64,000 bases of DNA from Gammaproteobacteria bacterium (GCA_965601665.1 OZ271833.1:562205-626204); one strand, 5' to 3'; counted from the first letter of the stretch, positions 1,401-42,057 are shown. Notes: generated by a model not told the origin, from the letters alone. Made by a program: numbers and translations.

Positions 1401-1408
1401 TTTATTCA

Positions 1409-5082: not shown

Positions 5083-5090
5083 AATAGAGC

Positions 5091-5753: not shown

Positions 5754-5789
5754 ATTTATAACGATTTGTAATTTTATCATTAGCCCGGT

Positions 5790-7001: not shown

Positions 7002-7008
7002 TGCATCG

Positions 7009-10437: not shown

Positions 10438-12603
10438 TCATGCGGTTAAATCTGCCTTGCTCAGTGGTAGCGTACGAATGCGCTTGCCGGTAAGGGTAAA
10501 CAAGGCGTTGCACACGGCAGGTGCAATTGGTGGTGTGCCGACTTCACCGATGCCACCCATCTGGGCGCCGCTATTGATAATCGCCACATCAACCTCGGGC
10601 ATACTGCTCGCAGGCATGACCGGATAGGTATGAAAATTGGTGTTGGTCACACGGCCTTTTTCCATGGTGATTTCTTCGGCCAGTGCGGCAGAAAGTCCAT
10701 AGGCGATCGCGCTTTCCATCTGCATGGCAACAATACCGGGATTTACCGCGAAACCGCAGTCGACCACTGACCATACCTTGTGTACTTTTACTTGCGAACC
10801 TTGCAGGGAGACATCGGCTATTTGCCCAACGATACTGCCGAACGATTCATGCAGGGCCACGCCCATGGCATGTTGTTGCCCGTTCTTATTAAATACGTTC
10901 GGCGTCCAGTTTGCCATCCTGGCCACCTTCTTCAATACGGCAGCAAATCGCGGCGCATCCTTGAGCATGGAAAGGCGGTACTTGACCGGGTCGGCACCGG
11001 CCGCGTGGGCCAATTCATCCATGAATGATTCTTTAATAAAGCCGTTTACCGAATGAGCAACCGAACGCCAGTAGCCTATCGGTACCGGGCTGAGTGGCAC
11101 ATGGACGATATCCAGCTGTTTATTGCCAACATGGTACGGCTGTTTTTCTATCCCCTCGATGATCGTGACATCGATTTTTGGATCCTGCAGGAATTCCGGG
11201 TTTAACCGTCCCATGGGCCCTTCGCCGGCATTGGTCACGTGCATGGCAACGGTGTTACCGTCCTTATCAAGCCCTGCCCGATAACGCGCTGCGGTCAGCG
11301 GTCGATAGAAATCATGTTGTGTATCCTCTTCACGGGTCCAGACAACCTTGATGGGCGTCCCCTTGTGTAAGTTGGCCAGCGTGACTGCCTGGGCAACATA
11401 GTCCATCAGGAAGCGACGCCCAAAACCTCCGCCCAGGAACGGTGTTTTTACTTCTATCTGATCCAGTGCCAGTCCGGTTATCGCCGCTGCCGTGCCGGCA
11501 ACGAAATCGGCACCCTGGTTAGGCGCCCAGACGGTACACTGTTTGCCGGTTACCACGGCCGTACAGTTCATCGGTTCAAGCGTGGCATGGGCAAGGAACG
11601 GGACATGGTAGTCAGCCGTGATGGTTTTCTCGGCACTTGCCAGTGCTGTTTTCACGTCGCCTTCTTTTTCCGCAGTGATACCGGGTTTATCCAGGCTGGA
11701 TAACAGTGTCTGCAGGTAACCTGCAGATGAAAAATTAGCGTTGGCACCTTCATCGAAAGTGACATTTAATGCCTCGACCGCTTTTTTAGCATGCCAGAAG
11801 TTATCGGCAATCACGGCGACCCCGTCGGGTATTGGATCCACCCATTTGACGCCCGGCATGGAGAGCACAGAATTCGCGTCAAACGATTTTACCTTGCCAC
11901 CGAAGACAGGAGATTGCCTGACCGCGGCCACCAGCATGCCGTCGACCTGTGTATCGATACCAAAGTCGGCAGTGCCGGTTGCCTTGGCGAGGCTGTCAGT
12001 ACGCTTGACCGGTTTGCCTATCAGGCGGAAGTCTTCCGGCTTTTTCAACGGTACGTTTTCCGGCACGGGTTGTTGTGCGGCGAGTGACGCGAGTTCGCCA
12101 TAGCTAATGGATTTTCCCGTCTTGCTGTTCACAACCATGCCGGGTTTGGTGTTACAGTCGGTTGGTTTCAACTGCCATTTCTCTGCTGCGGCATTGATCA
12201 ACATGGCCCTGGCCGTGGCGCCAGCGCGACGCATGGTGTCGTAAGACGAGCGGACACTCAAACTGCCACCCGTAAAGCGGACCGTGTTGTTGAACATGAT
12301 CTTGTAATCATCACCATGCGGGGCCTGTTCAATCGTCATACTCTCGATGTCGACATCCAGTTCCTCTGCCACTATCGCCGGTATCGATGTGTAGGTGCCC
12401 TGGCCCATCTCGATAAACGGGTTAAAAAAGGTAACCGAGTTGTCGGTATCGATGACTATAAACGCATTGAGCATCGCATTGTCTTGCGATGCCTGTGCAA
12501 GTTTCATCTTGCCCACCGGCAAGTACATGCCCATGACGAAGGCGCCAGCGCTGAGCCCAAGGAATTCACGTCGTGATACGGTCAGTTTGTCCTGATTACT
12601 CAT
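10438..12603 (-). CDS. molybdopterin-binding large subunit of an Ior/aldehyde-oxidase-type xanthine-dehydrogenase-family enzyme, Tat-exported
   Basis: A twin-arginine leader (SRREFLGLSAGAFVMG) is followed by aldehyde oxidase/xanthine dehydrogenase a/b hammerhead and MoCo-binding domains (…GGGFGRR…). Length is 721 aa. Confidence 0.85.
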   Translation of the reverse strand: MSNQDKLTVSRREFLGLSAGAFVMGMYLPVGKMKLAQASQDNAMLNAFIVIDTDNSVTFFNPFIEMGQGTYTSIPAIVAEELDVDIESMTIEQAPHGDDYKIMFNNTVRFTGGSLSVRSSYDTMRRAGATARAMLINAAAEKWQLKPTDCNTKPGMVVNSKTGKSISYGELASLAAQQPVPENVPLKKPEDFRLIGKPVKRTDSLAKATGTADFGIDTQVDGMLVAAVRQSPVFGGKVKSFDANSVLSMPGVKWVDPIPDGVAVIADNFWHAKKAVEALNVTFDEGANANFSSAGYLQTLLSSLDKPGITAEKEGDVKTALASAEKTITADYHVPFLAHATLEPMNCTAVVTGKQCTVWAPNQGADFVAGTAAAITGLALDQIEVKTPFLGGGFGRRFLMDYVAQAVTLANLHKGTPIKVVWTREEDTQHDFYRPLTAARYRAGLDKDGNTVAMHVTNAGEGPMGRLNPEFLQDPKIDVTIIEGIEKQPYHVGNKQLDIVHVPLSPVPIGYWRSVAHSVNGFIKESFMDELAHAAGADPVKYRLSMLKDAPRFAAVLKKVARMANWTPNVFNKNGQQHAMGVALHESFGSIVGQIADVSLQGSQVKVHKVWSVVDCGFAVNPGIVAMQMESAIAYGLSAALAEEITMEKGRVTNTNFHTYPVMPASSMPEVDVAIINSGAQMGGIGEVGTPPIAPAVCNALFTLTGKRIRTLPLSKADLTA

Positions 12604-13064
12604 GACTTACCTCCTTTCAGCGCTGCGGCTTTTTTTATAGCCGCCTGGATTTGCAGGTAAGTGCCACATCGACAGAGGTTAGTAATACCGTTCTTTATTT
12701 CTTCGTCAGTGGGTGTTGGATTGTTTTCCAGGAAAGCGGCGGCGGCCATGATTTGTCCTGACTGACAATAACCACACTGCGGCACATCAGACTCAGCCCA
12801 GGCCTTTTGTACCGGGTGTGGTTTTTCAGGCGTACCAAGACCTTCTATCGTTGTGATTGCCTTGCCCTTGGCCATGGAGACCGGCGTGATGCAGGAACGC
12901 ATGACGTTACCATCGACATGTATTGAGCAGGCCCCGCAGAGTCCCATGCCGCAGCCAAACTTTGTGCCGGTATAACCAATGACATCGCGAATCACCCAGA
13001 GCAGGGGCATGTCGTCTTCAACATCCACCTCGAGTTTTTTTCCATTTACGTTTAATGTCATCAT
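12600..13064 (-). CDS. (2Fe-2S)-binding small subunit of the molybdo-hydroxylase
   Basis: It has two 2Fe-2S clusters: the plant-type CGMGLCGACSIHV and a second C…C cluster (CGYCQSG…CRCG). It overlaps the large-subunit gene by an ATGA. Confidence 0.85.
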   Translation of the reverse strand: MMTLNVNGKKLEVDVEDDMPLLWVIRDVIGYTGTKFGCGMGLCGACSIHVDGNVMRSCITPVSMAKGKAITTIEGLGTPEKPHPVQKAWAESDVPQCGYCQSGQIMAAAAFLENNPTPTDEEIKNGITNLCRCGTYLQIQAAIKKAAALKGGKS

Positions 13065-13094
13065 GTCATTTACCTCGATTCATTGAATTAAATG

Positions 13095-14786
13095 CTAGGC
13101 TGAAATCGCCATAAAGTTGCGGTACTCCGCATCGGTATCCAGATCGATAGCGGCTTCAGGTATCGATACGGTTTTTACCTTTGTCTTGTCTTTAAAAAAG
13201 TGTTTTGCACCTTGGTCACCATGTAGTCGCATCAGCAACTCGAAATCGATATCAGGAAAAATGGCAGGTACACCGATGGACGACTCGTAATGACTGGCCA
13301 CGCGATAACCAGGTTCATGCCTCCATGCAGAGACAAGCTTCTCAAGCGCATGGCTGGTGATTAACGGCTGGTCTGCAAGGACAACCATGGCAGCCGTAGC
13401 GGATTCTGGCAATGAACTGATGCCCGTACGGATAGAGCTTGCCAGACCTTCACTCCAGTCAGGGTTATAAACAATGTGTTGTTCATAACCGTTTAGTGCC
13501 TGTCGTATTGCTTTGTCATTTGCGCCCAGGATTATTTTGAACCTGTCCTGGAAGACCTGTTGCAGTTGTTCACAGGTATGCAGGATAAGTGGTTTGCCAC
13601 GAAACTCGAGTAGCTGTTTGGGCTGGCCCATACGGCTGGAATCGCCTGCGGCAAGCAATATCGCATGGCATTGACCACGTTCCACGTTTGCATGAACCTG
13701 GACAGGACGATCATCCAGCATGCCACCAGTTCGGCCTGCGCACACGGCCTGTATCTCGGCCAGGATCGATAACGCAATTTCATCCGGTGTTTTTGAGCCG
13801 ATGTCCAGTCCGACTGGTCCGTGACTTCTATTTCTAACTGATGCCGCCAGGTCCCCTATGGCATTATATATCTGGTCACGACGGTGCGCAGGGCCAAGTA
13901 AACCAATGTACGGTATCGTTGAATGTGCCAACTCTTTAACGTAACGAATATCGTAATCAATGCTATGCGTCATCAACACCATGGCATCGTAGCGATGTAA
14001 CGGCAGGTCGCTGCTGATACTCTCGGGTCTGACTTTGACCAGTTGCACGTGTTCCGGGAAACGTGATCGAACAAGGTAGGCTGGCCGATGATCGGCAACA
14101 GTGATGTCCCAACGTAATTGCGTCGCCATGTTGACCAGCGGGATCGCATCGGGTCCCGCACCAAGCAGTAACAGGTGTTTGGCTGGCAAAATCCGTTCAC
14201 AATAAAATGTCACCGATGATCCTTCGACAGAGGCGGTGTCATAAATGATTCGTTGCTGTGTGATTCTGTCGGCAAAAAGATTGATTAATTCAACAAGAGC
14301 CCGGTTTTCATGCTGAAACCGGATAGCCGGGTTCCAGGTCACGGTGGTACCCGCAGGCAAACCATCGTGCTCGCTATCGATAACAGAACAAAGCATGAGT
14401 GCTTCGCCCGCTGCAGCTGCATCAGCTAACTCGGAAATCGGTGTATAGCCGGCGTTTTTATCCAGGGATTGCAGAAAAATACGAACGGCACCATTACAGC
14501 CAAGTCCCAGCCCCCAGATAACATCGTCTGGCGAACGCATATCGTAAAACAGTGTTTTTGATTTGCCGGTCTTGAAGACCTCGCCGGCCTGTTCAATAAG
14601 GTCACCCTCAAAACAGCCACCGGCAAGAATGCCGCTGTAGGATTTATTTGAGGACACAATCATACGCGCCCCCGCCTTTTGATAACTCGAACCCGTGGTT
14701 TCGATGATGGTGGCAAGAACAGTTTTTTCGCCTAGTTGACTTTGTTGATTACAAAAGCGAACGAAGTCACTGAATATACTGGACAT
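13095..14786 (-). CDS. XdhC/CoxI-family maturation factor fused to a MocA-like molybdenum-cofactor cytidylyltransferase
   Basis: The N-terminus has the XdhC_CoxI and XdhC Rossmann domains (LLLLGAGPDAIPLV). The C-terminus has the nucleotidyltransferase motif AILLAAGDSSRMGQPKQLL, as in MobA/MocA. Confidence 0.7.
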   Translation of the reverse strand: MSSIFSDFVRFCNQQSQLGEKTVLATIIETTGSSYQKAGARMIVSSNKSYSGILAGGCFEGDLIEQAGEVFKTGKSKTLFYDMRSPDDVIWGLGLGCNGAVRIFLQSLDKNAGYTPISELADAAAAGEALMLCSVIDSEHDGLPAGTTVTWNPAIRFQHENRALVELINLFADRITQQRIIYDTASVEGSSVTFYCERILPAKHLLLLGAGPDAIPLVNMATQLRWDITVADHRPAYLVRSRFPEHVQLVKVRPESISSDLPLHRYDAMVLMTHSIDYDIRYVKELAHSTIPYIGLLGPAHRRDQIYNAIGDLAASVRNRSHGPVGLDIGSKTPDEIALSILAEIQAVCAGRTGGMLDDRPVQVHANVERGQCHAILLAAGDSSRMGQPKQLLEFRGKPLILHTCEQLQQVFQDRFKIILGANDKAIRQALNGYEQHIVYNPDWSEGLASSIRTGISSLPESATAAMVVLADQPLITSHALEKLVSAWRHEPGYRVASHYESSIGVPAIFPDIDFELLMRLHGDQGAKHFFKDKTKVKTVSIPEAAIDLDTDAEYRNFMAISA

Positions 14787-15072
14787 AAATCAGTTGCAAT
14801 CCTGAAGAAGTACGGAAACCTTAAATCTACAAAGTTCTGATCATACGTGAACTAATAATCTAATCCATTAGTAGTTTCGCAGTTTTACATAACTGCAATA
14901 TTACAGTCAGGATAGATAATGAAATGAATAGTACCAGTATCTTTTTTGAAAAGGTTTATTGAATATATCAAGGTATATGTTTTAAAGCAGGCAGATGATA
15001 TGACACTGCCTTATCAAGAAAAATAGTATTGCCTTAATGAAAGGCCGTTTCTTTTAGATTTGATTATACAAT

Positions 15073-15552
15073 TTAAATTCTCAAAACAGCTTGGCTGGAT
15101 GAAGAACAACCGGAGAGCACCAATTCCAATGGGCTGGTATGTATAGAAAACGGGGCAACCATGATTAACGCGTTTAATCCAAGAATGTTACGACCGGAAC
15201 TATTCATCACGGCAACTTCCATTTCACCCAAGTTGCAGTTATCGCCAATACTAAACGACTCGACTTTATAAAGCGGCATCGTTTCCAGACTACTATTGGC
15301 AAGTCTTGCCACAACTTCGCCTACTTGTTCAACTTTGCCCGCACGTGATATTTCTTCAAACAAGTGGCGATTCAACGTGATAATGCCGGCGCCTGTATCC
15401 ACCATAAATTGCGAGTGCACGCTGGAATTGATCACAGCATCTACATAAAGATTTCCTGATTGCGATTTATCCATCGGCACATACACATCTTCAGCACTGC
15501 TGGATGCACATATGAACAATGACAGTAGGAAAAACAGGTATCTTATTTTCAT
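15073..15552 (-). CDS. secreted retropepsin-like (clan AA) aspartic protease
   Basis: A signal peptide (MKIRYLFFLLSLFICASSSA) is followed by the catalytic triad motif FMVDTGAG. The size and layout match the bacterial TIGR02281-type retropepsins. Confidence 0.6.
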   Translation of the reverse strand: MKIRYLFFLLSLFICASSSAEDVYVPMDKSQSGNLYVDAVINSSVHSQFMVDTGAGIITLNRHLFEEISRAGKVEQVGEVVARLANSSLETMPLYKVESFSIGDNCNLGEMEVAVMNSSGRNILGLNALIMVAPFSIHTSPLELVLSGCSSSSQAVLRI

Positions 15553-16082
15553 TTAGAGCTTTGGTGATCAACTATCGTTTTTATTCAAGGCAGAAAGCAT
15601 AAAACTTGCCATGTCTCATTGTTTTATAAGCAACTGATTTCAAGTGTTTATTTAGAATTCCTTGTGAAGGAAAAGAAAGGGTATGCACAGAAATGAAGTT
15701 TGAACGGTATTTTTTGCACAATAGCCGTGCAAAATTATTATGATTAATGGAAGGCGATCGGTTACTACTTGCCAATCCTTGATGTTATTAATGACACAGA
15801 AACGGGATGTCAACATTGAGCAAACGGGCGACACGAATTGCGCCCGATTGCCATTCTGATATGTGCACCATTTCGCATCAAGAACACGCCTTTCCATGCA
15901 CTAAAATTAAACAAAGAGAGATGTGCAGCGCAGCATTATTACCATCAATAAAACGATTAAGTATCATCAAGTTAATTCAATCATCTTTAGTAAACTATTT
16001 GTGTGTTTTTCGTCTAATATACGTGATGAATACTGACTAACAATAATTATTAGCAACACTTTAAGAGCACGAGGTAAAGATA

Positions 16083-25784: not shown

Positions 25785-26693
25785 TTAACCGTCTGACCCC
25801 AATACCCGTTTACTTCTTAACTGAAAATCTTGTAGTAACTCGTTGACTAATTCATTTGGGAAGTGGCTTTTCACCGTGACCGCATAAAAGTTTTCAAATA
25901 CATTCGGTATCGTCATGTAGTGTACAAGCTTGCCGCTAAGCAGTTCATCTTTAACGACCACGTCCGGCATCACTGACAGTGCTCCGCTATCGCGCGCAAG
26001 CAACCGCAGCATCGGCATGTCATCGGCTTCGGCGGCAATGTCAGGACGGAACTGGTACTGGGCGCAAAAACCATCAAACGCCGAGCGGATGGGCGTATCA
26101 GTAACAGGCAGTACCCAGCGTTGACTGACATAGCGCTGATTGAATCGTTTACCAAGTTTCAGACCTGGTGGACCAATGACCGATACCGGTTGCCGTCCCA
26201 GTAACTGGCAACGCCATAGCTGCTGTTCACTCCCCAATACTTCTATATTGGTGAGCGCCATATCGAACTGGTGATTGGATAAATCATTGAGCAGGTTACC
26301 CTGGCGTCGCGCATGCAGGCTGTAGGTGATATCGCTACGCCTAATCAGTGGCTCGATGAAACTCTCGATAAAATTTCGAGACATTGTTGATAAGGTGCCG
26401 ATGCGAAGTGTCTGCTTTTGGGGCGTAATCCCTTTGGTCAGCAATAATTCCAGTTCTTCACCTTTGGCAAATATCTCTTCCGCGTATAACAGCGTCCTTT
26501 TGCCGGATTCCGTTAATACCAGTTTTCTGCCCTCACGGGAGAACAAGTCAACGTCCATGGTCGATTCTAACTGCTTGATTTGACTGGAAAGAGCTGACTG
26601 CGATACGTGCAGGCTTTTTGCCGTTTCGGTCAGGTTTCCAGTCCTGGCAACGTGCCAGAAGTAGTACAGATGATGATAATTCAGTTTGGCCAT
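25785..26693 (-). CDS. LysR-family regulator, NhaR-like
   Basis: The N-terminus (LNYHHLYYFWHVARTGNLTETAKSL) closely resembles E. coli NhaR (INYNHLYYFWHV…). It is divergent from the dabB/dabA operon. Confidence 0.8.
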   Translation of the reverse strand: MAKLNYHHLYYFWHVARTGNLTETAKSLHVSQSALSSQIKQLESTMDVDLFSREGRKLVLTESGKRTLLYAEEIFAKGEELELLLTKGITPQKQTLRIGTLSTMSRNFIESFIEPLIRRSDITYSLHARRQGNLLNDLSNHQFDMALTNIEVLGSEQQLWRCQLLGRQPVSVIGPPGLKLGKRFNQRYVSQRWVLPVTDTPIRSAFDGFCAQYQFRPDIAAEADDMPMLRLLARDSGALSVMPDVVVKDELLSGKLVHYMTIPNVFENFYAVTVKSHFPNELVNELLQDFQLRSKRVLGSDG

Positions 26694-26790
26694 AGTTCTT
26701 TATTATAGAACGATTTGTTAAATATTATATATTTTACTTAAGTTTTGTCGCCGCTAAAATTCTCATCGTCAAAAATTATCTGGAGATGTA

Positions 26791-28341
26791 GTGATGAACA
26801 CTATGAATTTTACCGGGCTACTTTGGCCCATGCTGTTGAGCTTGCCAGTCCTGGCAATAGTATTCAGTAGTAGCCAACGGCGTTGGCAAATTGCCCAGTT
26901 TTTCATGGGGACGAACCTGTTGTTGGCCGTGGCGGCCTGGATTCAGGCTGTATTTTTTGCCTCCGCGCCACTGGCATCCAGCCTGATACATTTAACTGCA
27001 CTGGACACGACCGTGCTGGTACTGATCAGCTTTATCGGCCTGGTGGTATTACGTTATGCCAAAAACAACCTTGAAGGCGATCAGGACGATGCCCGTTTCC
27101 TGAAATGGTATATCGCAACGGTACTGGCAGTTATCGTTACTGTTACCACCAACCACCTTGCTGTCTTCTGGTTAAGCTGGACGGCTATCAGCCTGGCACT
27201 ACACCAGTTACTGATGTTTTATCCGGACCGACCACGTGCCATTCTTGCGGCACACAAAAAATTCCTTTTTGCACGAGTTTCTGAAGCGTTGTTGGCCGTT
27301 GCTTTCTTCCTGCTTTACCAGCAACATGGCTCACTGATCATCAGTGAAGTCATTAATGAGATCAGCGCAGCAACTACGCTTAGCCTACAACATCAGATAG
27401 CTGCTGTATTGCTGGGCGCCGTCGCTTTAATTAAGTGTGCGCAACTACCGCTACATGGCTGGTTAATCCAGGTAGTTGAAGCGCCTACTCCTGTTTCTGC
27501 GTTGTTGCACGCAGGCATTATTAACCTGGGTGGTTTCCTGTTGTTGCTGTTTTCACCGCTTTTCGGACAGGTCGCTGCAGCACAATGGCTGGTTTTGATT
27601 GTTGCCGGACTATCAACATTGATAGCGGCACTGGTCATGATGACCCGAATCAGTATTAAAGTACGTCTTGCCTGGTCAACTACCTCGCAGATGGGTTTGA
27701 TGCTGATTGAGTGCGGACTAGGTCTATATGAACTGGCTCTGTTGCACTTGCTCGCGCACTCCTGCTACAAGGCTTACGCCTTCCTGAGCTCAGGTAACGC
27801 AGTTAATGACTTTCTGCGCCAGGCCTATGTGAAGGTATCACTTCCTTCATTTGCAAACTGGTCCTTGGCGATTTCTGCTTCTGTTGCGATTGTTGTAGCA
27901 AGCATCTATCTGACAGGTGCTGCAGTTCCTGCCAGTCCATGGATACTTGTGACCATTGCATTGAGCAGCCTGCTAGCATTCCGTTTTCAACATACGCACA
28001 AGATTTCGTTCATGCGTTCATTGTTTACAGGTGCTGGTGTGGTCGCTTTTTACCTATTAATGAAAACAGTTATGCCACTGTTGTTACCCGAGGTTAACGT
28101 CAGCTACAGCTGGATGGCAGATGCATGGATAAGCGCTGTATTTATTAGCTTGATGACAGGCTACCTGTACCTGCAATATCAGACCCGGAGTCAATTATCT
28201 CGCAAGTTATTCATTGCACTAAACGCAGGATTTTATCTTGATGAGTGGGCTACGCGTACCACGCTGAAGTTATGGCCAATAAGCGTACCGCGCTCGACCA
28301 ATAAACACATGGCTATCCCATCGGAGGTGATTTATGAGTAG
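26791..28341 (+). CDS. dabB: DabB/MpsA-type NuoL/MnhA-like proton-conducting membrane subunit
   Basis: 516 aa with about 13 TM helices. It carries the PF00361 signature KCAQLPLHGWL…APTPVSALLHAGIINLGGFLLL (compare NuoL [34 protein letters not shown]). Its stop overlaps the start of the DUF2309 gene. Confidence 0.65.
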   Translation: MMNTMNFTGLLWPMLLSLPVLAIVFSSSQRRWQIAQFFMGTNLLLAVAAWIQAVFFASAPLASSLIHLTALDTTVLVLISFIGLVVLRYAKNNLEGDQDDARFLKWYIATVLAVIVTVTTNHLAVFWLSWTAISLALHQLLMFYPDRPRAILAAHKKFLFARVSEALLAVAFFLLYQQHGSLIISEVINEISAATTLSLQHQIAAVLLGAVALIKCAQLPLHGWLIQVVEAPTPVSALLHAGIINLGGFLLLLFSPLFGQVAAAQWLVLIVAGLSTLIAALVMMTRISIKVRLAWSTTSQMGLMLIECGLGLYELALLHLLAHSCYKAYAFLSSGNAVNDFLRQAYVKVSLPSFANWSLAISASVAIVVASIYLTGAAVPASPWILVTIALSSLLAFRFQHTHKISFMRSLFTGAGVVAFYLLMKTVMPLLLPEVNVSYSWMADAWISAVFISLMTGYLYLQYQTRSQLSRKLFIALNAGFYLDEWATRTTLKLWPISVPRSTNKHMAIPSEVIYE

Positions 28342-30763
28342 CACAGCTTCAAATTTAGAAACGACGCAGTCAGATATCGCCACTGCCGTTGCCAGCGCGT
28401 GCGCACGTGTCGCGCCAACCTGGCCATTAGACCAGGCGATTGCGGTCAATCCCTGGTGGGAGATGCGACAGACCCCGATGGCAGAGATTGCCGCTAAAGT
28501 TGAAACACTGGGTCAGGTGCAGTGCCTGATGCCGAAGAGTTACTACAGTTCTCTCTGGCAGAAGCAGATTCAGAGCGAACATCTGCAGGAAGCAGCAAAG
28601 TTGCTCGGTGTTGAGGTAACTGAAGACGAACTGGTGGCATTCCTTGCTGATGAAAGCACAGAAACACATCACTGGCACAATTTTAATGACTTGCTCGATT
28701 CACAACCTGAGCGTGTCAAGAAGATGCCATGGCGCGATGAAATCGTGCAGCAGATTAGTCAGTTTTGTGGTTTGTGTTTTGAATATCCTGGACGTGTAGA
28801 TTCAACTGCTGTCAATGGCTGCGGTCTGTATGAAGCATGGTTGGAAGTTGTACAGCAAGACCGCGGTATCGAGGTGCTGATGGGCGAGGATCTGCAGCAA
28901 TACTTCAAGGCATTGCCGGGTTCACCCGCGCAATTGTTTTCAGAGGTCTTTGCTGGCATGGGTAAACCGGAAAACTTTAGCGAATATGCGTACGCACTGT
29001 TGCTGGATATTCACGGCTGGGCTTCCTGGATGGCGTACACTGCGTGGCAGGATGCTTTTAATGAAAAGGATAACAATCTTGTCGAGCAGCTACTGGCCAT
29101 GCGCATGGCATGGGAATGGGTGCTCTGGCAACACACGCAGAATTCACAAGCGGCCATGTTTAAACTGCTGGAAAAACAGTTTCTCCGTCAGTTTGAACAG
29201 TGCGATTTTTATGAGCACTTGCACCTTGCCAAGCAGGAATACCTGTGGGTATGGCAGCGCGCGATGGAGTTGTCTTACCAACAGCCGCTGAACAAGATGC
29301 TGATGTCGCAACAGTCAAAGCAGGCCCCAGAGTCGAAGCCGGCATTGCAGGCGGCTTTCTGTATTGATGTACGTTCAGAGCCAATGCGACGTGCGTTGGA
29401 GTCGCAGTCTGACGATATTCAAACTATTGGTTTTGCCGGATTCTTCGGCTTGCCGATTGAATATTCTCCGGCTGAAAGTGATTACACGCGTCCGCAATTA
29501 CCAGGTTTGTTACCAGCAGCAATTAAGGTTCAACCTGCGGGTTTGAGTGGTGATGCGAGCGACACCAGTAAAGAGATTTATCGTTCAAACAGCGATCAAA
29601 ACTCTATTGAGGCCGCGCCTTCGACATTTGGCCTGGTTGAAATGACAGGGCTGTTCAAGTCATTCAAGCTGATTAAAGACAGTTTTTCACCTAGCAAGCC
29701 ATCGCATGGCATCAACGACATTGAAGCGGTAGGTAAATGGGAACTGTTGCAGGATGGCAAGCAGGTTAGTTCCGAAGAGCTGATCAACCTGGCAAAAGGC
29801 ATACTCGGTGCCATGGGGCTGACGAAAAACTTTGCCCCACGTGTATTGTTACTCGGCCATGGAAGTTGCACTGCCAACAACCCGCAGGCCGCTGGTCTTG
29901 ATTGCGGTGCCTGTGGCGGTCAGACCGGTGAAGTAAACGTTAAGGTCCTTTCCCAGATACTTAATGATAAGGACGTACGTGACGGCTTGAAACAAGCCGG
30001 TATTGATGTGCCTGCTGACACCCGCTTTATCGGTGGTCTGCATAGCACAACCACGGATGACATCATTCTTTACGGACGATTAGGTAAAGAAGGCTGGCAG
30101 CAATGGCTCAAGGATGCCACAACAATGGCGCAAAAGAACCGTGCTGAAAGCGTTGGTGTCAATCCGGAAAAAGACGTAGCTGAACAGTTTGAACAGCGTT
30201 CCAGGGACTGGTCACAAATTCGTCCGGAATGGGCGCTGGCAAATAACGCCGCGTTTATCGTTTCGCCTCGATACCTGACCAGGGATCTGAACCTTGAAGG
30301 TCGCACCTTCCTGCATGATTACAACTGGCAGGAAGATGAAGGCTATGGTGTGCTGGAACTCATTATGACAGCGCCCATGATCGTGACTAACTGGATCAAC
30401 CTGCAGTATTACGCGTCGGTGACGGACAACCTTAAGTATGGTTCCGGTAACAAGATGTTGCATAACGTGGTTGCTGACCATATCGGTGTCTTCGAAGGTA
30501 ATGCCGGTGACCTGCGTATCGGGTTGGCCATGCAGTCCCTGCATGACGGCAAGGAATGGCGCCACCAGCCAAACAGGTTGAGCGTTTATATTGCCGCGCC
30601 AACTGAGGCAATGTCGGACATCATTAATCGTCATGAGCATGTTGCCGACCTGTTGAACAAGGACTGGTTATACCTTTATCAACTCGACAACGATAACGGT
30701 GGTATCAAACAATACGTTAAGGGAGAATGGAAGCAGGTTTCTGAAGAAGGCTTCACTGCATGA
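28334..30763 (+). CDS. dabA: DabA/MpsB-type DUF2309 (UPF0753) protein, putative CO2-hydrating subunit
   Basis: It is a soluble 809-aa protein encoded immediately after, and overlapping, the NuoL-like membrane gene. It has conserved Cys/His/Asp positions (…[21 protein letters not shown]…) as expected for the zinc site. This pairing is the MpsAB/DabAB arrangement. Confidence 0.6.
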
Positions 30764-31683
30764 CAACTACCCTGACGCATTTGCGTACGCTCGAAGCGGA
30801 GGCCATCCACATTATTCGTGAGGTGGCCGCCAGCTTCGACAATCCTTGCCTGTTTTACTCAATTGGTAAGGACTCAACCGTGATGTTACACCTGGCCAGG
30901 AAAGCATTCTGGCCAGGCACGGTGCCTTTTACCCTGCTGCACATTGATACCACGTGGGAATTTGGTGAGATGGGCCGCTTCAGGGATCGTATCGTTGATA
31001 AACATGGTTTGCGCTTATCGGTCTATATTAACGAGGAGGCGTTGGCCGCTGGAATTCATCCGATTGAATCCGGGTCGGTAAAATATAACGATATGATGAA
31101 GACCCAGGCATTAAAACAGGCGATGGCCATGCATCAATTTGATGCTGCGCTGGGCGGGGCGAGGCGTGATGAAGAAAAGTCGCGGGCCAAGGAACGTATC
31201 TTTTCCATTCGCGACAAGCACCAGGGCTGGGACCCCAAGCAACAGCGCCCCGAACTCTGGAATCTTTATAATGCCAACATCAACAAGGGTGAATCAGTCA
31301 GGGTTTTTCCCCTATCCAACTGGACCGAACTCGATATCTGGCAGTATATCCTGTTGGAAAAGATCGAGATTGTGCCACTGTATCTGTCTGCACCAAGGCT
31401 GAGCTGGATTTGTGATGAAAGCCAGCAGGTGTTTGCCATGGACGACGAACGTATGATGCCTTATCTCAGTGAAACAGAGAAACAATCGCTGGAGATGCGT
31501 AATATCCGTTTCCGAACCCTGGGCTGTTATCCGCAAACCGGGGGTGTAATGAGTGAAGCTGACAGCGTTGGCGATATCGTGCAGGAACTGCTGGTGGCCA
31601 GAACCAGCGAGCGGGAAGGGCGCATGCTGGACAAAGACCAGGTTGGGTCCATGGAAATCAAGAAACGCGAGGGTTATTTTTAG
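30760..31683 (+). CDS. cysD: sulfate adenylyltransferase subunit 2 (CysD), with no adjacent CysN
   Basis: It is near-colinear with E. coli CysD ([20 protein letters not shown]…[18 protein letters not shown]…[18 protein letters not shown]…[15 protein letters not shown]…RFRTLGC…[11 protein letters not shown]). Its ATG overlaps the dabA stop in an ATGA arrangement. Confidence 0.9.
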
Positions 31684-31689: not shown

Positions 31690-33836
31690 TTAATCAAGGT
31701 CAAAAGACAGCTCCGCCAGGAAACTGCGGTCGCTCAATGGAAAATCGCCACTGTAGACGCCGAACATATTGAAAGCGGAAGGGTAGCGTGCATCATTGTT
31801 AAACGCGTTCTTGACCAGTATGGCAGCATTAAAGTTATTTATAATTTTTCGTTTTTCCAGCTTCAAATCAACCAGCGTATCGTTCGCAATGTCATTGCGT
31901 GTATCGTTCGTCGCCCTGTTACGATTGGCAATGTAATTCGCCTGTACATACGCAAACCAACCCGGGGCAGGATTCCAGTCAGCAGCGACAAACGCATCGA
32001 GATGAGGTACATCAACTACTTTCTTGTCTGTTGCCTGATCATTGGTCATTATCCATGCAATGTTACCTGAAAGGTTAAGGCTATTAATGGGCTGCCATGT
32101 CATTTCATATTCAAGCCCATAGGCTTCCTGTTCGCGTGCATTTTCGGCCATAAAGACCCCGGCGCCATCAGGCACGAACTCGATCAGGTCATCGGCATAA
32201 TAATAGAAAAAATTGGCGCCATAGCTCATTCGAGTTGATGGGGTGAACGTCATACCAAATTCAACGGTGTCAATTTTTTCCGGATCTAGATCCGGATTGC
32301 CCAAAGATACCGGGTTATTGGTTGTGAATTGATCAGTTGTCGTTGGTGGTCGAAATGCACTGCTATAAAGGAGTTTAAGTGTCAGTGCGTTGGTGGTATT
32401 CCAGAGTAGCGCCACTCTCGGATTTATCGTGCTGCCAAAGTCCGAGTAATCGTCAATACGTATACCTGTAGTCAGGTTCCAGCGTTGGCTGATATCCCAT
32501 TCATCCTGCAGTGACAGGCTGTAAATATGCCGGTTGTTGTCTCTAAACCAGACAAATGGCGTTTCCGTCGTAACTGTAGATACCGTGGGCGTGACGCCTG
32601 GACCAAAGTTTTTGATTTCATAGGAATTTGATTCTTCGTACTGATAGCGAGTAGACAAACGTATGCGATGGTCTTCCAGACCGGTATAGATCCCGGTGAA
32701 TTCAAACGATGGTTTTAACATTAGTCTGCCAGGAGATCCCTGTACGCCATCAGGAAAGTTGACTGGCACTGCACCGGGGCCGGGGCCTAAATTACCTGAA
32801 GGTTGTACCAGTAAGGTAGCATCTGCTGGAAACAATGTTGTCTCCACCGGTTCATCCGTGTAGTTGAAGCTTGCCCGGAAGTTCAGGTTCCAGTCACCCA
32901 GGTCATCGAGCGTATTGTATTGGAGATCCGACAGGATATTTGTGGTTTCAATATTGCCGGTTGGATCCAAAGCGTTGGCAAAGCCTCCACCTGTGCCCTG
33001 GTTTGGTTTATCGTTAAGCCAGAAATTGATATCCCAATGATTTTTTTTAAATGACAGGTGCAAATCGATAACCTCGTAATCGGTGTTTAGCCTGCCAGGT
33101 GACAGAGATGCGGAGGTGTTGAAGATACCATCCAAGACACTTTGCTGGTCAGATGGTACAACTCGGTCGCCATCACCTTTTGTCGTCTGGTATTCACCGG
33201 TCAGCGCGATTTCCCAGCCTGAATAGAGACCGCCATGGTTGGCCCAAGCGTGATAGGTGTTGCTCGTTCCTGCACGCGTTCCGAACGTGGTACCATCAAT
33301 GTCGTTGCCATCTTTCGTTACGATGTTAACCACACCACCAAATGCATCGGCACCATAAACTGCTGAGCCTGGCCCGCGTATGACCTCGACACGTTTGATA
33401 TTATTTACAGTTTTTAGAAATTGCGAAACCGGTGAACCCTTGAAAGGGGTGTGGATAGTCAAGCCATCAAGCAGGAACAGTACCTGGTTATTACGCTGGT
33501 TTTGCAAGCCACGCACAGTCACTTTTTTTCAAAAACCTGATTTCCTGTGCTGATATGAAAACCTGGAACCCGCTCCAGTACTTCATAAAGATCGATAGCT
33601 CCCATCCGACGTATTTGTTCGGCAGTGATAATGGTCGCTACGGCAGGTAATGTCTCCCTGGTACGCGTGGTTCCTGTGGCCACGGTTATCTCGGCAAGCT
33701 CATCCAGGTCGAGGCTTAATAAGCGCTCTAATTCATAGTCAGTTTCTCTGGCGGCAGTGTTTGCGCAAGAGAGTAACAAAAGAGGTATCGCTATGGTATG
33801 TGTGTACCTGTTTAGCCTGGCCTTGACGTTATTCAC
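31690..33836 (-). pseudogene. TonB-dependent receptor interrupted by a 1-nt frameshift in an A7 homopolymer
   Basis: The N-terminal signal peptide and plug region (33519–33836) end in …NQVFEKK*. The plug continues in another frame as (KK)VTVRGLQN…VLFLLDG (31690–33522). The junction is gaaaaaaag (T7 on the + strand at 33523–33529). A run of A8 or A5 would restore one ORF. The C-terminus has a β-barrel ending …ELSFDLD. Confidence 0.7.
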
Positions 33837-34131: not shown

Positions 34132-35145
34132 TTGATGACTGCTAAATCTGTTCTTTTGGCAGATGATGACCAGACGACGCTTACTGTCCTGACTGCGACA
34201 CTTGAAGATTATGGCTACCGTGTTGATAGCACGGATCGTGGCGAGAAATGTTTATTCAAGGCCATGGAGCAGGATTACGATGCGTTTCTCATTGACCTGA
34301 ATATGCCAGGTTTGGGTGGAGTGGAGCTGTGTAAAAAATTACGCGCCCTGGAACAGTACAAACTCACTCCCATTATTATCATCACGTCCATGGACGAGGA
34401 AACCAACCTCGGCGAGGTATTATCCGCGGGCGCCAGCGACTTTATTTCCAAACCGGTCAATCCCGTGGTACTGAATGCGCGTTTAAAAAACCACCTGGAA
34501 AAGCAAGAGTACTATGATGAACTGGAGCGCATCCGCCGTTATCTGAATCGTTATATTTCATCCCGAACGCAACGCATGGTGGAGGCCTACGCAACGACAG
34601 GGCTGGTGCCTGAACCAGAACTCCATCATGTTTGCGTGATGTTTACTGACATCCGTGGTTTTACCCGCTTAAGCACCAAAATTGATCTGCAGGAATTATT
34701 TGCCAGAATCAGTTATAGCCTCGGTCAACAGGTAGACCTCGTTTACAAATATCACGGCTATATCGACAAGTTCGGTGGTGATGGGCTAATGGCCATCTTT
34801 GATGGTGAATTGGCAGTCAGCAACGCCTGTGAATGCGCCCGACAAATAATCGATCAAGCCACCAGGCATCCCGATCCCTTGCCTATCGGTATAGGACTTC
34901 ATTACGGTCCCGTGTTGATTGGTAATATTGGTTCCAACGAACATCTGGACTACTCGGCGCTGGGCGAAACAGTCAATCTGGCGTCGAGGATATGTAACTA
35001 TGCCGATGCAATGCAAATAAGAGCAAGTGAAACAATTATAGAACAATTAAGTGATGATAACAGCATACGACATACCGATGTAGAGTATGCCACCCTACGA
35101 GGTTACGAGGAGCAGATACCCATATACCGTTTTCATTTTGACTGA
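34132..35145 (+). CDS. response-regulator receiver domain fused to a class III adenylate/guanylate cyclase
   Basis: The REC domain has an LLADDD acidic pocket and the phospho-acceptor region FLIDLNMPG. The cyclase (CHD) domain has VMFTDIRGFT…KFGGDGLMAIF. Confidence 0.8.
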   Translation: MMTAKSVLLADDDQTTLTVLTATLEDYGYRVDSTDRGEKCLFKAMEQDYDAFLIDLNMPGLGGVELCKKLRALEQYKLTPIIIITSMDEETNLGEVLSAGASDFISKPVNPVVLNARLKNHLEKQEYYDELERIRRYLNRYISSRTQRMVEAYATTGLVPEPELHHVCVMFTDIRGFTRLSTKIDLQELFARISYSLGQQVDLVYKYHGYIDKFGGDGLMAIFDGELAVSNACECARQIIDQATRHPDPLPIGIGLHYGPVLIGNIGSNEHLDYSALGETVNLASRICNYADAMQIRASETIIEQLSDDNSIRHTDVEYATLRGYEEQIPIYRFHFD

Positions 35146-35213
35146 AATATTTGCCGTTTGTCACTTTCTGACATTATACTTTATGAAATTATAATAATTA
35201 AAAAGGCAAAATC

Positions 35214-37061
35214 TTGAGATCCAAGTATACTATTCTCTTCAGTAGTATCCTTATCATTACTTTGCTGTCCTCATTCGTAGCGGCAGAAGCAAAACCACTC
35301 ATCCTTACCGACAATAGCAACAAGTATTCACTTCTCAAGGAAGCAGAATATTACGAAGACCAGAGTGGACAACTGGATATTGAAGCTATTCTTCAACGTC
35401 ATGCAAATGGTGAATTTGTCAGACCAGAAGAATTTATAAACTCACCTGGTTTTACGGATTCTGCTTACTGGTTTCGAATCAGCATATTTAATGACCGTTC
35501 AGCGGTTGATGCATGGTTGTTACAACTAACATATGCCATGCTCGATCACATCGACGTCTATTTGCTCGATAATTCAGGCCAGATAAAGCATGAGCACATG
35601 GGCGATGCCCAGCCTTTTAGTCAAAGGCAGATAGAACATCGTACATTTTTGTTTGATATGGCACTGCCAAAAAGAGAGATAGTCGAACTCCTGGTGCGGA
35701 TAAAAACAACCAGCTCCATGCAGCCTAAAATGTATTTGTGGGAAGCAACCACGTTCAACCATGATAACCAGGGTAATCAACTGGCATTTGGTATTTACTA
35801 CGGTGTTTTCCTCGCCATGCTCTTCTATAACCTGCTGGTGTACATATCTATTCGAGACAAGATTTACCTGTTTTATGTCGCCTATGTGCTTTCATTCAGC
35901 TTGTTTATGTGCTGCCTCAATGGATTGGGTTATCAGTACATCTGGCCTGATTTCCCCGGTTGGCAATCGCATGCCAGTGCGACACTGATGTCAGTTGCCT
36001 GTTTTAGTGCAATTCTTTTTGCCCGCACACTGTTGCGTTTGAAAGACTATTTGCCGCGCTGGGATAAATTCTTTCAGTGGTCGATGTACTATTTTACTTT
36101 GCTTGCTATAGCATCATTGTATCTTCCATATACCTATGTCGCCCAGATTTGTACGGCGAGTAGTCTGCTGTTATCTATTTTACTGAATTTTATTGGCTGG
36201 TTAAGCCTGAAGCATGAGAACCAGGTTGCCCGGTTTTACGTATTGGCATGGACTTTTTTTCTACTTGGCGCCAGCGTCTATGCTCTGAAAACCTATGGCG
36301 TGTTACCGCAGATCTTTATTACCGAATATGCCATGCAAATAGGCTCAATGCTGGACGTGGTTTTGCTATCAATGGTGCTGAGCTATCGAGTCAAGATGCT
36401 GCAGGAACAAAATGTTAAAATTCAGCTACAGGCTACGATAGAACTTGAAAGCAAAGTGCAGGAAAGAACCAGGAAGCTGAATGAAACGCTTGATGCCCTG
36501 TCTGAAAGCTACGCGAAAGTTGAAAAGCTAAATTACAGTGATCCATTAACAGACATCAAGAATCGGCGTTTTTTTGACGAGTTCTATTTACACGAAATGA
36601 AGAACGCGATTCGTAGTAAAGGGTCTATCGCAGTTATGGTTGCCGATATTGATCATTTTAAGCAGGTTAATGATGAATACGGCCATAATGCCGGCGACAA
36701 GGTGCTTATTTGTATAGGTCAATTGATCAAGGAAAATCTGCCTCGTGAGAATGATTTTGTAGCCCGTTATGGTGGCGATGAATTTGTGATTGTATTGCCG
36801 TTTACCGACAAGGAAGGTGCGCTGTTAATCGCTAAACGTATTAAAAACAGTATCTCTGAGCTTCAGGTGGAACATGAAAATCGCAACATTATGACAACGA
36901 TTAGCATTGGCATTTCGGCCATGCAACCGTCGTATGAAACCGACACCTACCGGTTAATTACCGAAGCTGATCGTGCCCTGTATGAGGCAAAAGAACTGGG
37001 AAGAGATCGGATCCGTTGCTACCATAATGGTGATGTCGAATTAAAGAGCGTCGACAGCTGA
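35214..37061 (+). CDS. 7TMR-DISM sensor diguanylate cyclase (GGDEF)
   Basis: It has a signal peptide and a periplasmic 7TMR-DISMED2-like domain, then 7 TM helices, a coiled coil and a GGDEF domain with RYGGDEF and an I-site-like RxxD. Confidence 0.8.
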   Translation: MRSKYTILFSSILIITLLSSFVAAEAKPLILTDNSNKYSLLKEAEYYEDQSGQLDIEAILQRHANGEFVRPEEFINSPGFTDSAYWFRISIFNDRSAVDAWLLQLTYAMLDHIDVYLLDNSGQIKHEHMGDAQPFSQRQIEHRTFLFDMALPKREIVELLVRIKTTSSMQPKMYLWEATTFNHDNQGNQLAFGIYYGVFLAMLFYNLLVYISIRDKIYLFYVAYVLSFSLFMCCLNGLGYQYIWPDFPGWQSHASATLMSVACFSAILFARTLLRLKDYLPRWDKFFQWSMYYFTLLAIASLYLPYTYVAQICTASSLLLSILLNFIGWLSLKHENQVARFYVLAWTFFLLGASVYALKTYGVLPQIFITEYAMQIGSMLDVVLLSMVLSYRVKMLQEQNVKIQLQATIELESKVQERTRKLNETLDALSESYAKVEKLNYSDPLTDIKNRRFFDEFYLHEMKNAIRSKGSIAVMVADIDHFKQVNDEYGHNAGDKVLICIGQLIKENLPRENDFVARYGGDEFVIVLPFTDKEGALLIAKRIKNSISELQVEHENRNIMTTISIGISAMQPSYETDTYRLITEADRALYEAKELGRDRIRCYHNGDVELKSVDS

Positions 37062-39820: not shown

Positions 39821-40807
39821 TCAGGGAACAACCCAAAGTGAATCCACGAAGCGTTCTTCGTCATCAACGAAGTGCCGTACTACCTCAAATCCTGCATCTT
39901 CAGCCATTTGTTCGATGTCTTCTTCGAGATATTTGAATGAATATTCCAGGTGGATAGGTTCAGCCTTATCAAAGTCAAAGTACTGATCCAGTGCTTCAAT
40001 AAAAACACGTTGTCGTTTCCTGGAAATAAGAAAGCTCTCCATTGCGCCCAGTCTCGGATTATAGGCGCCGTAATGTTCAAACTGTTCAAGATCGAACTGC
40101 CCGCCAAGCTCACGATTTATCCGTGCCAACAGGTTTAGATTGAATAAACGGGTATAGCCAGCACTGTCGTTGTAGGCCCGGTTTAAAGTTGAAATGTCTT
40201 TTTTCAAGTCAAAACCAATTAGGGCATGGTCGCCAGGTTTCAGTATGCCATGCAGTTTTGCCAGGAATCGTTGGCTTTGTAATGGATTGAAGTTGCCAAT
40301 GTTAGAGCCAAGAAACAGCACCAGCTGTGTATTGCCAGAGTGCTGTCGCACATGGCTCAAGCCGGCAAAGTAGTCGGCGATCACACCATGAATCGTTAGT
40401 AGTTCATGTTGGCCAAGCGTTTCTGCAAGTTGGTCCATGGCCTTTGCAGAAATATCGATCGGGTAGAGGTTTATCCTGGAATTGCGTGTCAGGAAACCGT
40501 CAAGGAGCAGTTCAGTCTTGTGTCCATCGCCGACGCCAAGTTCGATAATATCAATGACATCGGCATTGATGCTGGCAGCCAGATCGCTGCTTATGGTTTC
40601 AAGGATACTGTACTCGGCACGGGTCAGATAGTAATCCTCGTGTGCGGTAATTTTCTGAAACAGGATACTGCCCTTGTCGTCGTAGAAGTATTGTGCGGGT
40701 ATTTGCCTCGGCCTTGCCTGTAGTCCTTGTAGTACATCCCGGGCAAACTGGCTCTCGGTGATTGACTGGTTAGCATCCTGTTGTGCGATCAGGTTTTCAA
40801 TTTTCAT
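39821..40807 (-). CDS. egtD: L-histidine N-alpha-methyltransferase EgtD (ergothioneine biosynthesis)
   Basis: It shows the EgtD family signature …IPAQYFYDDKGSILFQKITAHEDYYLTRAEYSILE…, the SAM motif IIELGVGDGHKT, and the C-terminal DUF2260/EgtD fold. Confidence 0.85.
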   Translation of the reverse strand: MKIENLIAQQDANQSITESQFARDVLQGLQARPRQIPAQYFYDDKGSILFQKITAHEDYYLTRAEYSILETISSDLAASINADVIDIIELGVGDGHKTELLLDGFLTRNSRINLYPIDISAKAMDQLAETLGQHELLTIHGVIADYFAGLSHVRQHSGNTQLVLFLGSNIGNFNPLQSQRFLAKLHGILKPGDHALIGFDLKKDISTLNRAYNDSAGYTRLFNLNLLARINRELGGQFDLEQFEHYGAYNPRLGAMESFLISRKRQRVFIEALDQYFDFDKAEPIHLEYSFKYLEEDIEQMAEDAGFEVVRHFVDDEERFVDSLWVVP

Positions 40808-42057
40808 TTGCTGTCCCTTGCCAGGCGGATGCCGGAAAACATCCAGCGCTGATGTGGTTCATAAAAGTTTCGGTAGCTATGGCGCAAGTGCCCCTCGGGT
40901 GTCGCTATACAACCCCCGCGCAATACAAACTGGTTACACATGAATTTACCGTTGTACTCATGCAGGGGTCCTGCAAAGGTCTTGAATCCGGGGTAAGGGG
41001 AATAATGACTTGCTGTCCAGCACCATAATTGATTCCCTGCATTGCCATTATAGGGTTGTAATGCCAGCGGCCTGGATTGTTCTGTTGCAATCTTGCCTAG
41101 TTGCAATGCCACCTCGTATTCCTGTTCGGTTGGTAATCGAGCGTGCGCCCAGGCAGCAAAGGCACTGGCTTCAAAATAGCTCATGTGACAAACGGGCGCA
41201 TTCATATCCAATGGCCGCAAGCCATGTAATGTAAATTCATACCAGCTGCCATCTTTCTGGAACCAGTAGAGCGGGGACGTAATACCGTGCTCCCTGATAA
41301 AGTCGTAACCCTTGCTTAACCAGTAAGCGGGTTTGTCGTAACCACTGTTTTCCATGAACGCAAGGTATTCAGCGTTACTAACAAGTCCCTGCCTGATATG
41401 ACAATCGTGCAGGTAGATCTTATGCCGGGGTTGTTCATTATCGTAGGCAAAGCTATTGCCTTCACTGTGCCCAATCTCATAGAGGCCCTCGGTAAGCGGC
41501 ACCCAGTCCTGATTCGGGGCAGGACTGGCGGGAAGGGGTTGGCTGGCATAACAGGGCGCAATCGGATTGATACCTAATATGTATTTAATGTCCATGTACA
41601 GGAGTTCCTGGTGCTGCTGCTCGTGATGCAGGCCTAATTCAATCAATTTCAGGGCCTCGTTATCCAGGTTGCCTGATTGCAACAGTGCCAACACAGCAGC
41701 ATCAACCTGACTCCTGTAAGCAAGCACCTCATCAACAGTAGGGCGGGATAGTTGGCCTCGTTCAGCCTGTATCCAGTGTTTGCCTGCCCCCTTGTAGTAT
41801 GAGTTGAACAACTCGGTATAGCCCGCATTCATGCGCTGGTAGCCCTCTACCTGGTTCGCAAGAAGCATTTCCTCGAAAAACCAGGTCGTATGACCAAGAT
41901 GCCATTTTGGCGGGCTTACCTCGGGACAGGGCTGAATCGTATAGTCTTCGATTGCCAATGGCTGGCAGATTGCAACTGAATGATCGCGCACTTGTTGAAA
42001 GCGCGATGATAGTCGTCGGGAAATAACAGGTTCCGCAGTTGGAGATGGTTTAACCAT
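40804..42057 (-). CDS. egtB: ergothioneine biosynthesis sulfoxide synthase EgtB (DinB_2 + FGE-sulfatase domains)
   Basis: The N-terminal DinB_2 domain has an iron-binding His motif (WHLGHTTWFFEE). The C-terminus is an FGE-sulfatase/C-type-lectin-like domain. It overlaps egtD by an ATGA. Confidence 0.85.
   Translation of the reverse strand: MVKPSPTAEPVISRRLSSRFQQVRDHSVAICQPLAIEDYTIQPCPEVSPPKWHLGHTTWFFEEMLLANQVEGYQRMNAGYTELFNSYYKGAGKHWIQAERGQLSRPTVDEVLAYRSQVDAAVLALLQSGNLDNEALKLIELGLHHEQQHQELLYMDIKYILGINPIAPCYASQPLPASPAPNQDWVPLTEGLYEIGHSEGNSFAYDNEQPRHKIYLHDCHIRQGLVSNAEYLAFMENSGYDKPAYWLSKGYDFIREHGITSPLYWFQKDGSWYEFTLHGLRPLDMNAPVCHMSYFEASAFAAWAHARLPTEQEYEVALQLGKIATEQSRPLALQPYNGNAGNQLWCWTASHYSPYPGFKTFAGPLHEYNGKFMCNQFVLRGGCIATPEGHLRHSYRNFYEPHQRWMFSGIRLARDSK

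Follow-up and report, generated by a model that had tools for sequence, protein, structure and literature searches.

A 64,000-nucleotide stretch of DNA from a Gammaproteobacteria bacterium (OZ271833.1:562205-626204), analysed over its whole length and called the window below, carries dabB and dabA, the genes of a DAB-type (DIC-accumulating) inorganic-carbon pump, beside a divergently transcribed lysR gene. We consider it likely that the pump of this apparent heterotroph is proton-driven, that the LysR-type regulator activates it from a conserved operator and represses its own gene; as its signal, inorganic-carbon shortage seems to us more likely than Na+. The pump is a known kind of system. 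What is new is the assignment of the regulator to a subfamily, the operator-promoter, and the cysD and DUF6671 neighbours of the operon.

DabA and DabB compared with the DAB2 complex

A DAB-type pair under a divergent LysR-type regulator had been proposed in an earlier note, made from the sequence, which described a NuoL-like gene directly before, and overlapping, an 809-aa DUF2309 gene. The open reading frames (ORFs) lie at the places given there and overlap by 8 nt (ATGAGTAG), and the proposal agrees with the family matches, the matches to the DAB2 structure and the gene layout (Table 1). The search with hidden Markov models that the note had suggested gave DabA a score of 769.7 bits against PF10070, formerly DUF2309 (E=4.7e-231, profile positions 1-747 of 747, cut-off 25), and DabB a score of 129.8 bits against PF00361. 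DabB was also above the cut-off of NCBIfam NF006029 (527 against 380 bits). Judged by these scores, the family matches of the locus proteins are far beyond chance.

For a closer comparison we used the electron cryomicroscopy structures of Halothiobacillus neapolitanus DAB2 (9rd0, 9rd8 and 9rd9). DabA aligned with DabA2 (PDB 9rd0_A) over residues 9-801 (E=1.6e-150) and DabB with DabB2 (9rd0_B) over residues 63-509 (E=4.2e-71), whereas the NuoL chains of complex I reached only about 1e-34. Counterpart residues were read from pairwise alignments, and their roles were taken from the DAB2 preprint (10.64898/2026.03.13.711513). Every catalytic or coupling DabA residue named and mutated in that preprint is kept here, and the ten key DabA residues do not vary among 22 aligned homologues (48-76% identity).

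DabB residue numbers follow the 516-aa translation from the GTG start and fall by 1 for the ATG start. From its context the ATG at 26794 is the likelier start, as it sits 7 nt after a GGAG and the resulting 515 aa is the length seen in relatives. The earlier note counted 13 transmembrane helices in DabB; a crude hydropathy scan was not clean and gave no reliable count. The DabB2 structure has 15 transmembrane helices (10.64898/2026.03.13.711513).

Like DAB2, the complex would have two subunits, and no DabC-like gene was found at the locus, unlike the DAB1 heterotrimer. In DabA, DAB2 and the locus have in common the zinc ligands and Asp-Arg dyad, the residues of the proton relay, the Leu in place of the usual Gln and the membrane-finger Glu; in DabB they have in common the Lys of the ion pair and a non-acidic residue at the position of Ile151. 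From these residues we read the locus as encoding a complete, presumably active DAB of the two-subunit type. It differs from DAB2 in that cysD follows dabA, in its dedicated divergent lysR gene with a predicted operator, and in the Glu that replaces D185 of DabB2. The host also differs, being apparently a heterotroph, with RuBisCO and carboxysome families not seen among the Pfam-scanned ORFs of the window.

By homology to DAB2, cytoplasmic DabA would use a buried zinc site of the Cys2-His type to hydrate CO2 to bicarbonate, and the NuoL-like membrane protein DabB would let cations (most likely protons) flow down their gradient across the membrane. The two subunits would be coupled by a helical finger of DabA that carries a Glu and is inserted in DabB. 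Because of this coupling hydration would run one way, and bicarbonate would accumulate in the cell and could feed the carboxylases of central metabolism. DABs have been described as energy-coupled inorganic-carbon pumps that occur in heterotrophs as well, where they were proposed to supply bicarbonate (Desmarais et al., 10.1101/476713).

The coupling ion and the nature of the transport have been viewed differently for a homologue. Staphylococcus aureus MpsAB, which has the same two-protein family composition and is likewise found in a heterotroph, has been interpreted as a Na+/bicarbonate symporter or membrane-potential generator and argued to use Na+ (10.64898/2026.03.13.711513), and the PF00361 family includes Na+/H+ antiporter subunits. 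A complex of this type, in place of a proton-driven one-way carbonic anhydrase, is in our judgement unlikely here. The locus is likened to MpsAB, argued to be a Na+-coupled bicarbonate transporter, by family composition, whereas the zinc site of beta-carbonic anhydrases is kept here in full, along with the Asp-Arg dyad and the coupling Glu. Among the solved structures compared, its closest characterised relative by sequence is DAB2, whose substrate is CO2 and which responds to carbonyl cyanide m-chlorophenylhydrazone as an inhibitor, shows no Na+ dependence and does not rescue a delta-nhaAB strain (Lo et al., 10.64898/2026.03.13.711513). Proton-driven, one-way hydration is the reading we keep.

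A regulator subfamily beside dabBA

The association of the regulator with dabBA was followed through 160 loci around DabA relatives, 80 from genomes and 80 from metagenomes, with neighbours located by tblastn. The genome loci are those among the matches listed, none of them above 65% DabA identity. Where upstream sequence sufficed, a homologue of the regulator (39-73% identity) adjoined dabB in 54 of 65 genome loci, among the matches listed, and in 51 of 60 metagenome loci. Together these make 105 of 125 informative loci (about 84%) among the matches listed, and in 102 of the 105 the two genes are divergent. The pair occurs in Gamma- and Betaproteobacteria, Myxococcota (Archangium), Planctomycetota, Gemmatimonadales and Acidimicrobiales. 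On the same contigs, identity is higher for the regulator (62-73%) than for DabA (49-65%), and the genes on the regulator's far side vary between loci.

LysR-type genes are abundant, and another lies in the window at 4147-5082, so the regulator might stand beside dabBA by coincidence and control other genes. We find this very improbable. Adjacency in about 105 of 125 loci across phyla with varying far-side genes argues against it, as do the co-occurrence of the operator with the regulator and the location of the window's single perfect dyad, which lies in the lysR-dabB intergenic region.

A divergent COG0583 LysR gene was reported to be frequent at the 5' end where ybcC lies downstream of a nuoL homologue (Klimchuk et al. 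2017, PMC5700660). The 'Clade A' nuoL-ybcC operons of that study (COGNAT, PMC5700660) share with our locus the divergent LysR gene beside the operon; the regulator's subfamily, operator and function were not identified there, and the function of the nuoL-ybcC pair was not yet known then. LysR regulators were also among the genes that H. neapolitanus needs at ambient CO2 (Desmarais et al., 10.1101/476713). Our literature search returned no paper on the subfamily identity, operator or effector of the DAB-linked regulator and none naming a 'DabR', and nothing published on DAB regulation outside autotrophs turned up in the searchable literature.

The regulator has the domains PF00126 (HTH_1, 73.5 bits) and PF03466 (LysR_substrate, 71.9 bits). 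Its N-terminus, LNYHHLYYFWHV, is close to that of E. coli NhaR, INYNHLYYFWHV, with the common signature NY.HLYYFWHV, a likeness that the earlier note had seen correctly. The link to NhaR drawn from it stands in so far as NhaR is the nearest named relative; it does not extend to orthology. NhaR (NF008284) is the best NCBIfam match, at 104.3 bits under a cut-off of 219, and GltC (103.4) and CynR (91.4) follow. Identity to E. coli NhaR is 25% over 276 aa in a full-length alignment. We rejected the regulator as an NhaR orthologue on account of this identity and of a score less than half the cut-off and level with that of GltC. In E. coli, nhaR follows nhaA directly, whereas the regulator gene here is divergent from dabBA, and no NhaA-type family was found among the Pfam-scanned window ORFs of at least 150 aa, a scan that skipped about ten overlapping ORFs (on the opposite strand or in another frame). 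The regulator is not CbbR-like either, with 46.9 bits against the CbbR model NF045990 and a cut-off of 450.

Among 53 DAB-linked regulator homologues, 81 positions are at least 90% conserved. Family motifs include SRNF.E (105-110), DDMA..RL.ARD (224-235), P.VVV.DE (243-250) and E.FYA (267-271). NhaR has 40 of the 81 positions, 24 of them in the DNA-binding and linker part. A database search retrieved a large, tight regulator family of 62-96% identity, whose members the JGI pipeline labels 'transcriptional activator of nhaA'. Many of these proteins are encoded on contigs equal in length to those of the DabA matches. By these comparisons the regulator is a genuine NhaR relative in a separate subfamily, dedicated to DAB operons and spanning phyla.

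LysR-type control of inorganic-carbon uptake genes is also exercised by CcmR/NdhR and CmpR of cyanobacteria. In the PDB the regulator is matched best by 5y2v (E=3.4e-13, residues 5-147), an entry with the name 'Rubisco operon transcriptional regulator' that we take to be NdhR. Similarity to these proteins is, however, restricted to the DNA-binding half. CcmR/NdhR and CmpR sense Calvin-cycle or photorespiratory metabolites, signals that would not be expected in the heterotrophic hosts of the regulator-dabBA pair.

Proposed operator, promoters and signal

The intergenic region between lysR and dabB is 97 nt long and holds a perfect dyad, adjoining the lysR start, and a second conserved element (Table 1). 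ATTTTAC, the core of the second element, starts exactly 36 nt after the dyad start, a spacing fixed in most loci, and the two are in register across phyla. The cross-species consensus is GTTCT.Ttt.A.aGAACg.tt.gTta..At.tAT.TATTTTAC..AA, followed about 20 nt on by a -10-like cA.aaT. A dyad with 0-1 mismatch was present in 22 of 53 loci (0.8 expected from shuffles). With at most 4 mismatches allowed, the joint 17-position motif was found in 79 of 108 loci that have the regulator, in 5 of 21 that lack it and in 7 of 645 shuffled controls. The perfect dyad occurs once in the window; dyads with at most one mismatch number 2 there against 1.55 expected, no excess over chance. The evidence for the operator is therefore its position and cross-species conservation, not its count within the window. 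The divergent LysR neighbour has been known since 2017; new, at the level of sequence conservation, is the operator GTTCT-N7-AGAAC ... ATTTTAC that tracks the regulator. No similar dyad was found beyond chance in the region upstream of E. coli nhaA.

LysR-type regulators have a textbook layout, in which a recognition site with a T-N11-A dyad lies near -65 and an activation site near -35. Transcription of dabB is predicted to start at about 26767, which puts the dyad centre at about -64 and the second element over the -35; ATTTTAC overlaps the predicted -35 hexamer. With the start so predicted, the dyad and ATTTTAC are in the textbook layout of recognition and activation sites. The dyad also falls at about +6 to +22 of the predicted lysR transcript, which would start at about 26717, and so inside its predicted 5' untranslated region. 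The promoter positions, activation and autorepression are inferred. A LysR tetramer would bind the dyad and the second site over the -35 hexamer, and in its effector-bound form would activate dabB. It would also repress its own promoter, as suggested by the dyad in the lysR leader.

Because the reading frames overlap (cysD start and dabA stop by 4 nt, ATGA), dabB, dabA and cysD are probably one transcript with cysD as its third gene. An Rfam scan of the window gave three tRNAs, with no riboswitch or leader close to the operon, and a terminator scan gave nothing convincing downstream of dabA or cysD.

Table 1. Genes, predicted control elements and DAB2-equivalent residues of the locus (nucleotides counted from the first letter of the window)
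Feature	Position	Strand	Description
lysR	25785-26693	minus	302 aa; LysR-type regulator; HTH_1 and LysR_substrate domains
dabB	26794-28341	plus	515 aa from ATG; NuoL-like membrane subunit, proton conduction by homology; alternative GTG start at 26791
dabA	28334-30763	plus	809 aa; beta-carbonic-anhydrase-like catalytic subunit
cysD	30760-31683	plus	307 aa; sulfate adenylyltransferase subunit 2
Predicted regulator recognition site, perfect dyad GTTCTTTATTATAGAAC	26695-26711		GTTCT-N7-AGAAC, contains T-N11-A; from conservation across loci
Second conserved element TATATATTTTACTTAA, presumed activation site	26726-26741		core ATTTTAC at 26731-26737
Predicted sigma-70-like dabB promoter	26733-26760	plus	TTTACT-16-TAAAAT; consensus scan, 9/12 matches
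Predicted lysR promoter	26724-26751	minus	GCGACA-16-TATAAT; consensus scan, 10/12 matches; back to back with, and overlapping, the predicted dabB promoter
DabA zinc ligands	C343, H509, C524		DabA2 Cys351, His524, Cys539
DabA Asp-Arg dyad	D345, R347		DabA2 Asp353-Arg355
DabA proton relay	S348, H570, D575		DabA2 Ser356, His585, Asp590
DabA Leu in place of usual Gln	L635		DabA2 Leu658
DabA membrane-finger Glu	E436		DabA2 Glu444, essential; insertion of finger by homology
DabB Lys of ion pair	K215		DabB2 Lys235
DabB acidic partner of ion pair	E165		DabB2 Asp185; conservative Asp-to-Glu change
DabB Arg	R162		DabB2 Arg182
DabB non-acidic position	T131		DabB2 Ile151 (Glu in NuoL)

The signal to which the regulator responds can be approached through its hosts. 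The regulator-dabBA pair is found in Marinomonas, Pseudoalteromonas and Alcanivorax, to our knowledge heterotrophs without RuBisCO. Since many hosts are heterotrophs, a Calvin-cycle metabolite is an improbable signal. Rhodoferax, Variovorax, Ramlibacter and Undibacterium, which are freshwater or soil taxa, have the pair as well, as do metagenome-assembled genomes (MAGs) from bogs, and this argues against a general Na+ signal. We infer the effector, like the coupling ion and the physiological role of the pump, and regard inorganic-carbon shortage as a more likely signal than Na+.

If the regulator worked like NhaR, it would sense Na+ (or salt or osmotic stress) and switch on dabBA, and the operon would be salt-regulated. 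The top NCBIfam match, the common N-terminal signature, the 40 family positions present in NhaR, the automatic JGI name and the Na+ coupling argued for MpsAB all favour such a role. Yet the NhaR-like N-terminus is a poor basis for a Na+ signal because the DNA-binding end says little about the effector, and the NhaR score and identity are low, as given above. NhaR Glu134, a residue whose substitution is reported to alter Na+ induction, aligns with Gly132 of the regulator, which is not decisive. The Pfam-scanned window ORFs include no NhaA-type family, the E. coli nhaA upstream region has no similar operator, the pair is common in freshwater, soil and bog bacteria, and DAB2 needed no Na+ and did not rescue delta-nhaAB. 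Na+ control of the operon is weakly grounded on these comparisons, and we hold it to be improbable.

Several observations weigh against our model of a dedicated regulator that answers to inorganic carbon. About 16% of the DAB loci with adequate flank, among the matches listed, are without the regulator. These include Marichromatium, Leptospirillum and a Thiotrichales MAG, with phototroph and chemolithotroph lineages among them. Promoter-like hexamers occur at chance frequency in the region (11 found, 12.2 expected), so the promoter predictions draw their support from conservation in register. Further, 16 of the 40 family positions that NhaR, the nearest named relative, has are in the effector domain, and use of Na+ has been argued for the homologue MpsAB of S. 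aureus (10.64898/2026.03.13.711513). These last two points leave a cation signal some probability.

cysD, DUF6671 and the surrounding window

The product of cysD scores above the cut-offs of TIGR02039 (448.8 against 396.6 bits) and NF009214 (433.5 against 413) and is 61% identical to E. coli CysD. It aligns end to end with 1ZUN_A, the cysN-partnered CysD of P. syringae (E=7e-130), with the PP-loop SIGKDS kept. With E. coli CysN as query, tblastn found nothing in the window at a threshold of E<=1e-3 and nothing in the first set of compared loci (L002-L083) at E<=1e-10; in the later loci, no GTPase gene stood beside cysD in the called-gene tables. Among the matches listed, 33 loci with a DabA identity of 45% or more were informative, and in about 10 of them cysD directly follows dabA. 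This order was seen in loci of Cellvibrio, Deefgea, Pseudohongiella, Lacimicrobium, Thalassolituus and Methylophaga, and in Tamilnaduibacter cysD adjoins dabA but is convergent. Two equally close CysD homologues are encoded by solitary genes, with no cysN or dabA in their vicinity. Most simply, cysD would be a housekeeping copy whose cysN is elsewhere in the genome, although it may yet have a functional tie to DAB. A diverged paralogue with new chemistry was considered and rejected for now, given the 61% identity, the end-to-end alignment with 1ZUN_A and the kept motifs.

Among the matches listed, some 165 DAB loci were compared, and in about 30 of them, from several phyla, the uncharacterised DUF6671 (PF20376) is the next gene after dabA or cysD. 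Examples are L085 (8912-9763), L088 (8966-9787), L034, L059, L062 and L156-L159; there is none in the window. DUF6671 had no match in NCBIfam, the PDB or the literature search. In Deefgea piscis (CP081149; L088, 1-12496), exactly five genes, lysR, dabB, dabA, cysD and DUF6671, stand between two direct copies of an IS66-family element; the copies are separated by 10,545 nt and share 95.5% identity over 1952 nt. From this arrangement, the five-gene set looks like a composite-transposon-like mobile DAB module.

In Cellvibrio (L085-L087 and L171, about 9850-15650) dabBA-cysD-DUF6671 is followed by sua5/tsaC and carA-carB, and in Lacimicrobium (L018, 12101-13174) sua5 comes after the DAB operon. 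The enzymes encoded by sua5/tsaC and carA-carB all consume bicarbonate.

The DAB operon might be a larger portable module, made up of the sensor that is a sister of NhaR with its phylum-spanning operator, dabBA, and often an orphan cysD, DUF6671 or both as accessories. We think this doubtful. If cysD and DUF6671 did work with DAB, the pump would be linked to an unrecognised adenylation or sulfur-related step.

The window resembles an ordinary stretch of heterotroph chromosome. It encodes RND efflux, molybdoenzymes, signalling proteins, an egtD/egtB-like pair, tig-clpP-clpX-lon and a peptide ABC transporter, and the Pfam-scanned ORFs of its 64 kb gave no match to a RuBisCO, carboxysome or carbonic-anhydrase family. 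The closest relatives of the locus (93-97% identity) come from a metagenome. Beyond cysD, a TonB-dependent receptor (31690-33836, minus) is present as two ORFs in different frames, split at about 33520 and with part of the Plug domain in each, which from the frames looks like a frameshift or pseudogene. The closest relative, L082, lacks this receptor there and has a response-regulator/cyclase gene directly after cysD. At 34132-37061 (plus), the window encodes a response regulator-adenylate/guanylate cyclase fusion and, after it, a 7TMR-DISM diguanylate cyclase. At 39821-42057 (minus) are a histidine-specific methyltransferase (PF10017) and a DinB_2/FGE-sulfatase protein, which have the domain make-up of the ergothioneine genes egtD and egtB.

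At the other end of the window, 1835-5082 holds genes for a Fer2/PNPOx-type oxidoreductase and a CMD-family protein together with the second LysR gene, about 21 kb from the DAB regulator. The same trio adjoins the DAB regulator in the 93-97% identical relatives (L082, 8803-12013), and its displacement here indicates a recent rearrangement. Positions 1-16000 have a G+C content of 0.38-0.58 in 2-kb intervals, against 0.44-0.52 elsewhere, and include genes for a NERD nuclease-domain protein and for MacB-type ABC efflux, as well as an HTH/unknown pair. This part may be horizontally acquired.

DABs, energy-coupled one-way carbonic anhydrases that have come to be understood as a class in recent years, are being considered for the engineering of CO2 uptake. 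Automatic pipelines call the DAB-linked subfamily 'activator of nhaA', and separating it from NhaR would correct a likely systematic mis-annotation. The cysD and DUF6671 neighbours are cheap leads on DAB function in heterotrophs. The regulatory model is testable, as it proposes one regulator subfamily, one conserved 50-nt operator-promoter and defined conserved residues in the effector domain, and it would apply to roughly 100 further loci in several phyla.

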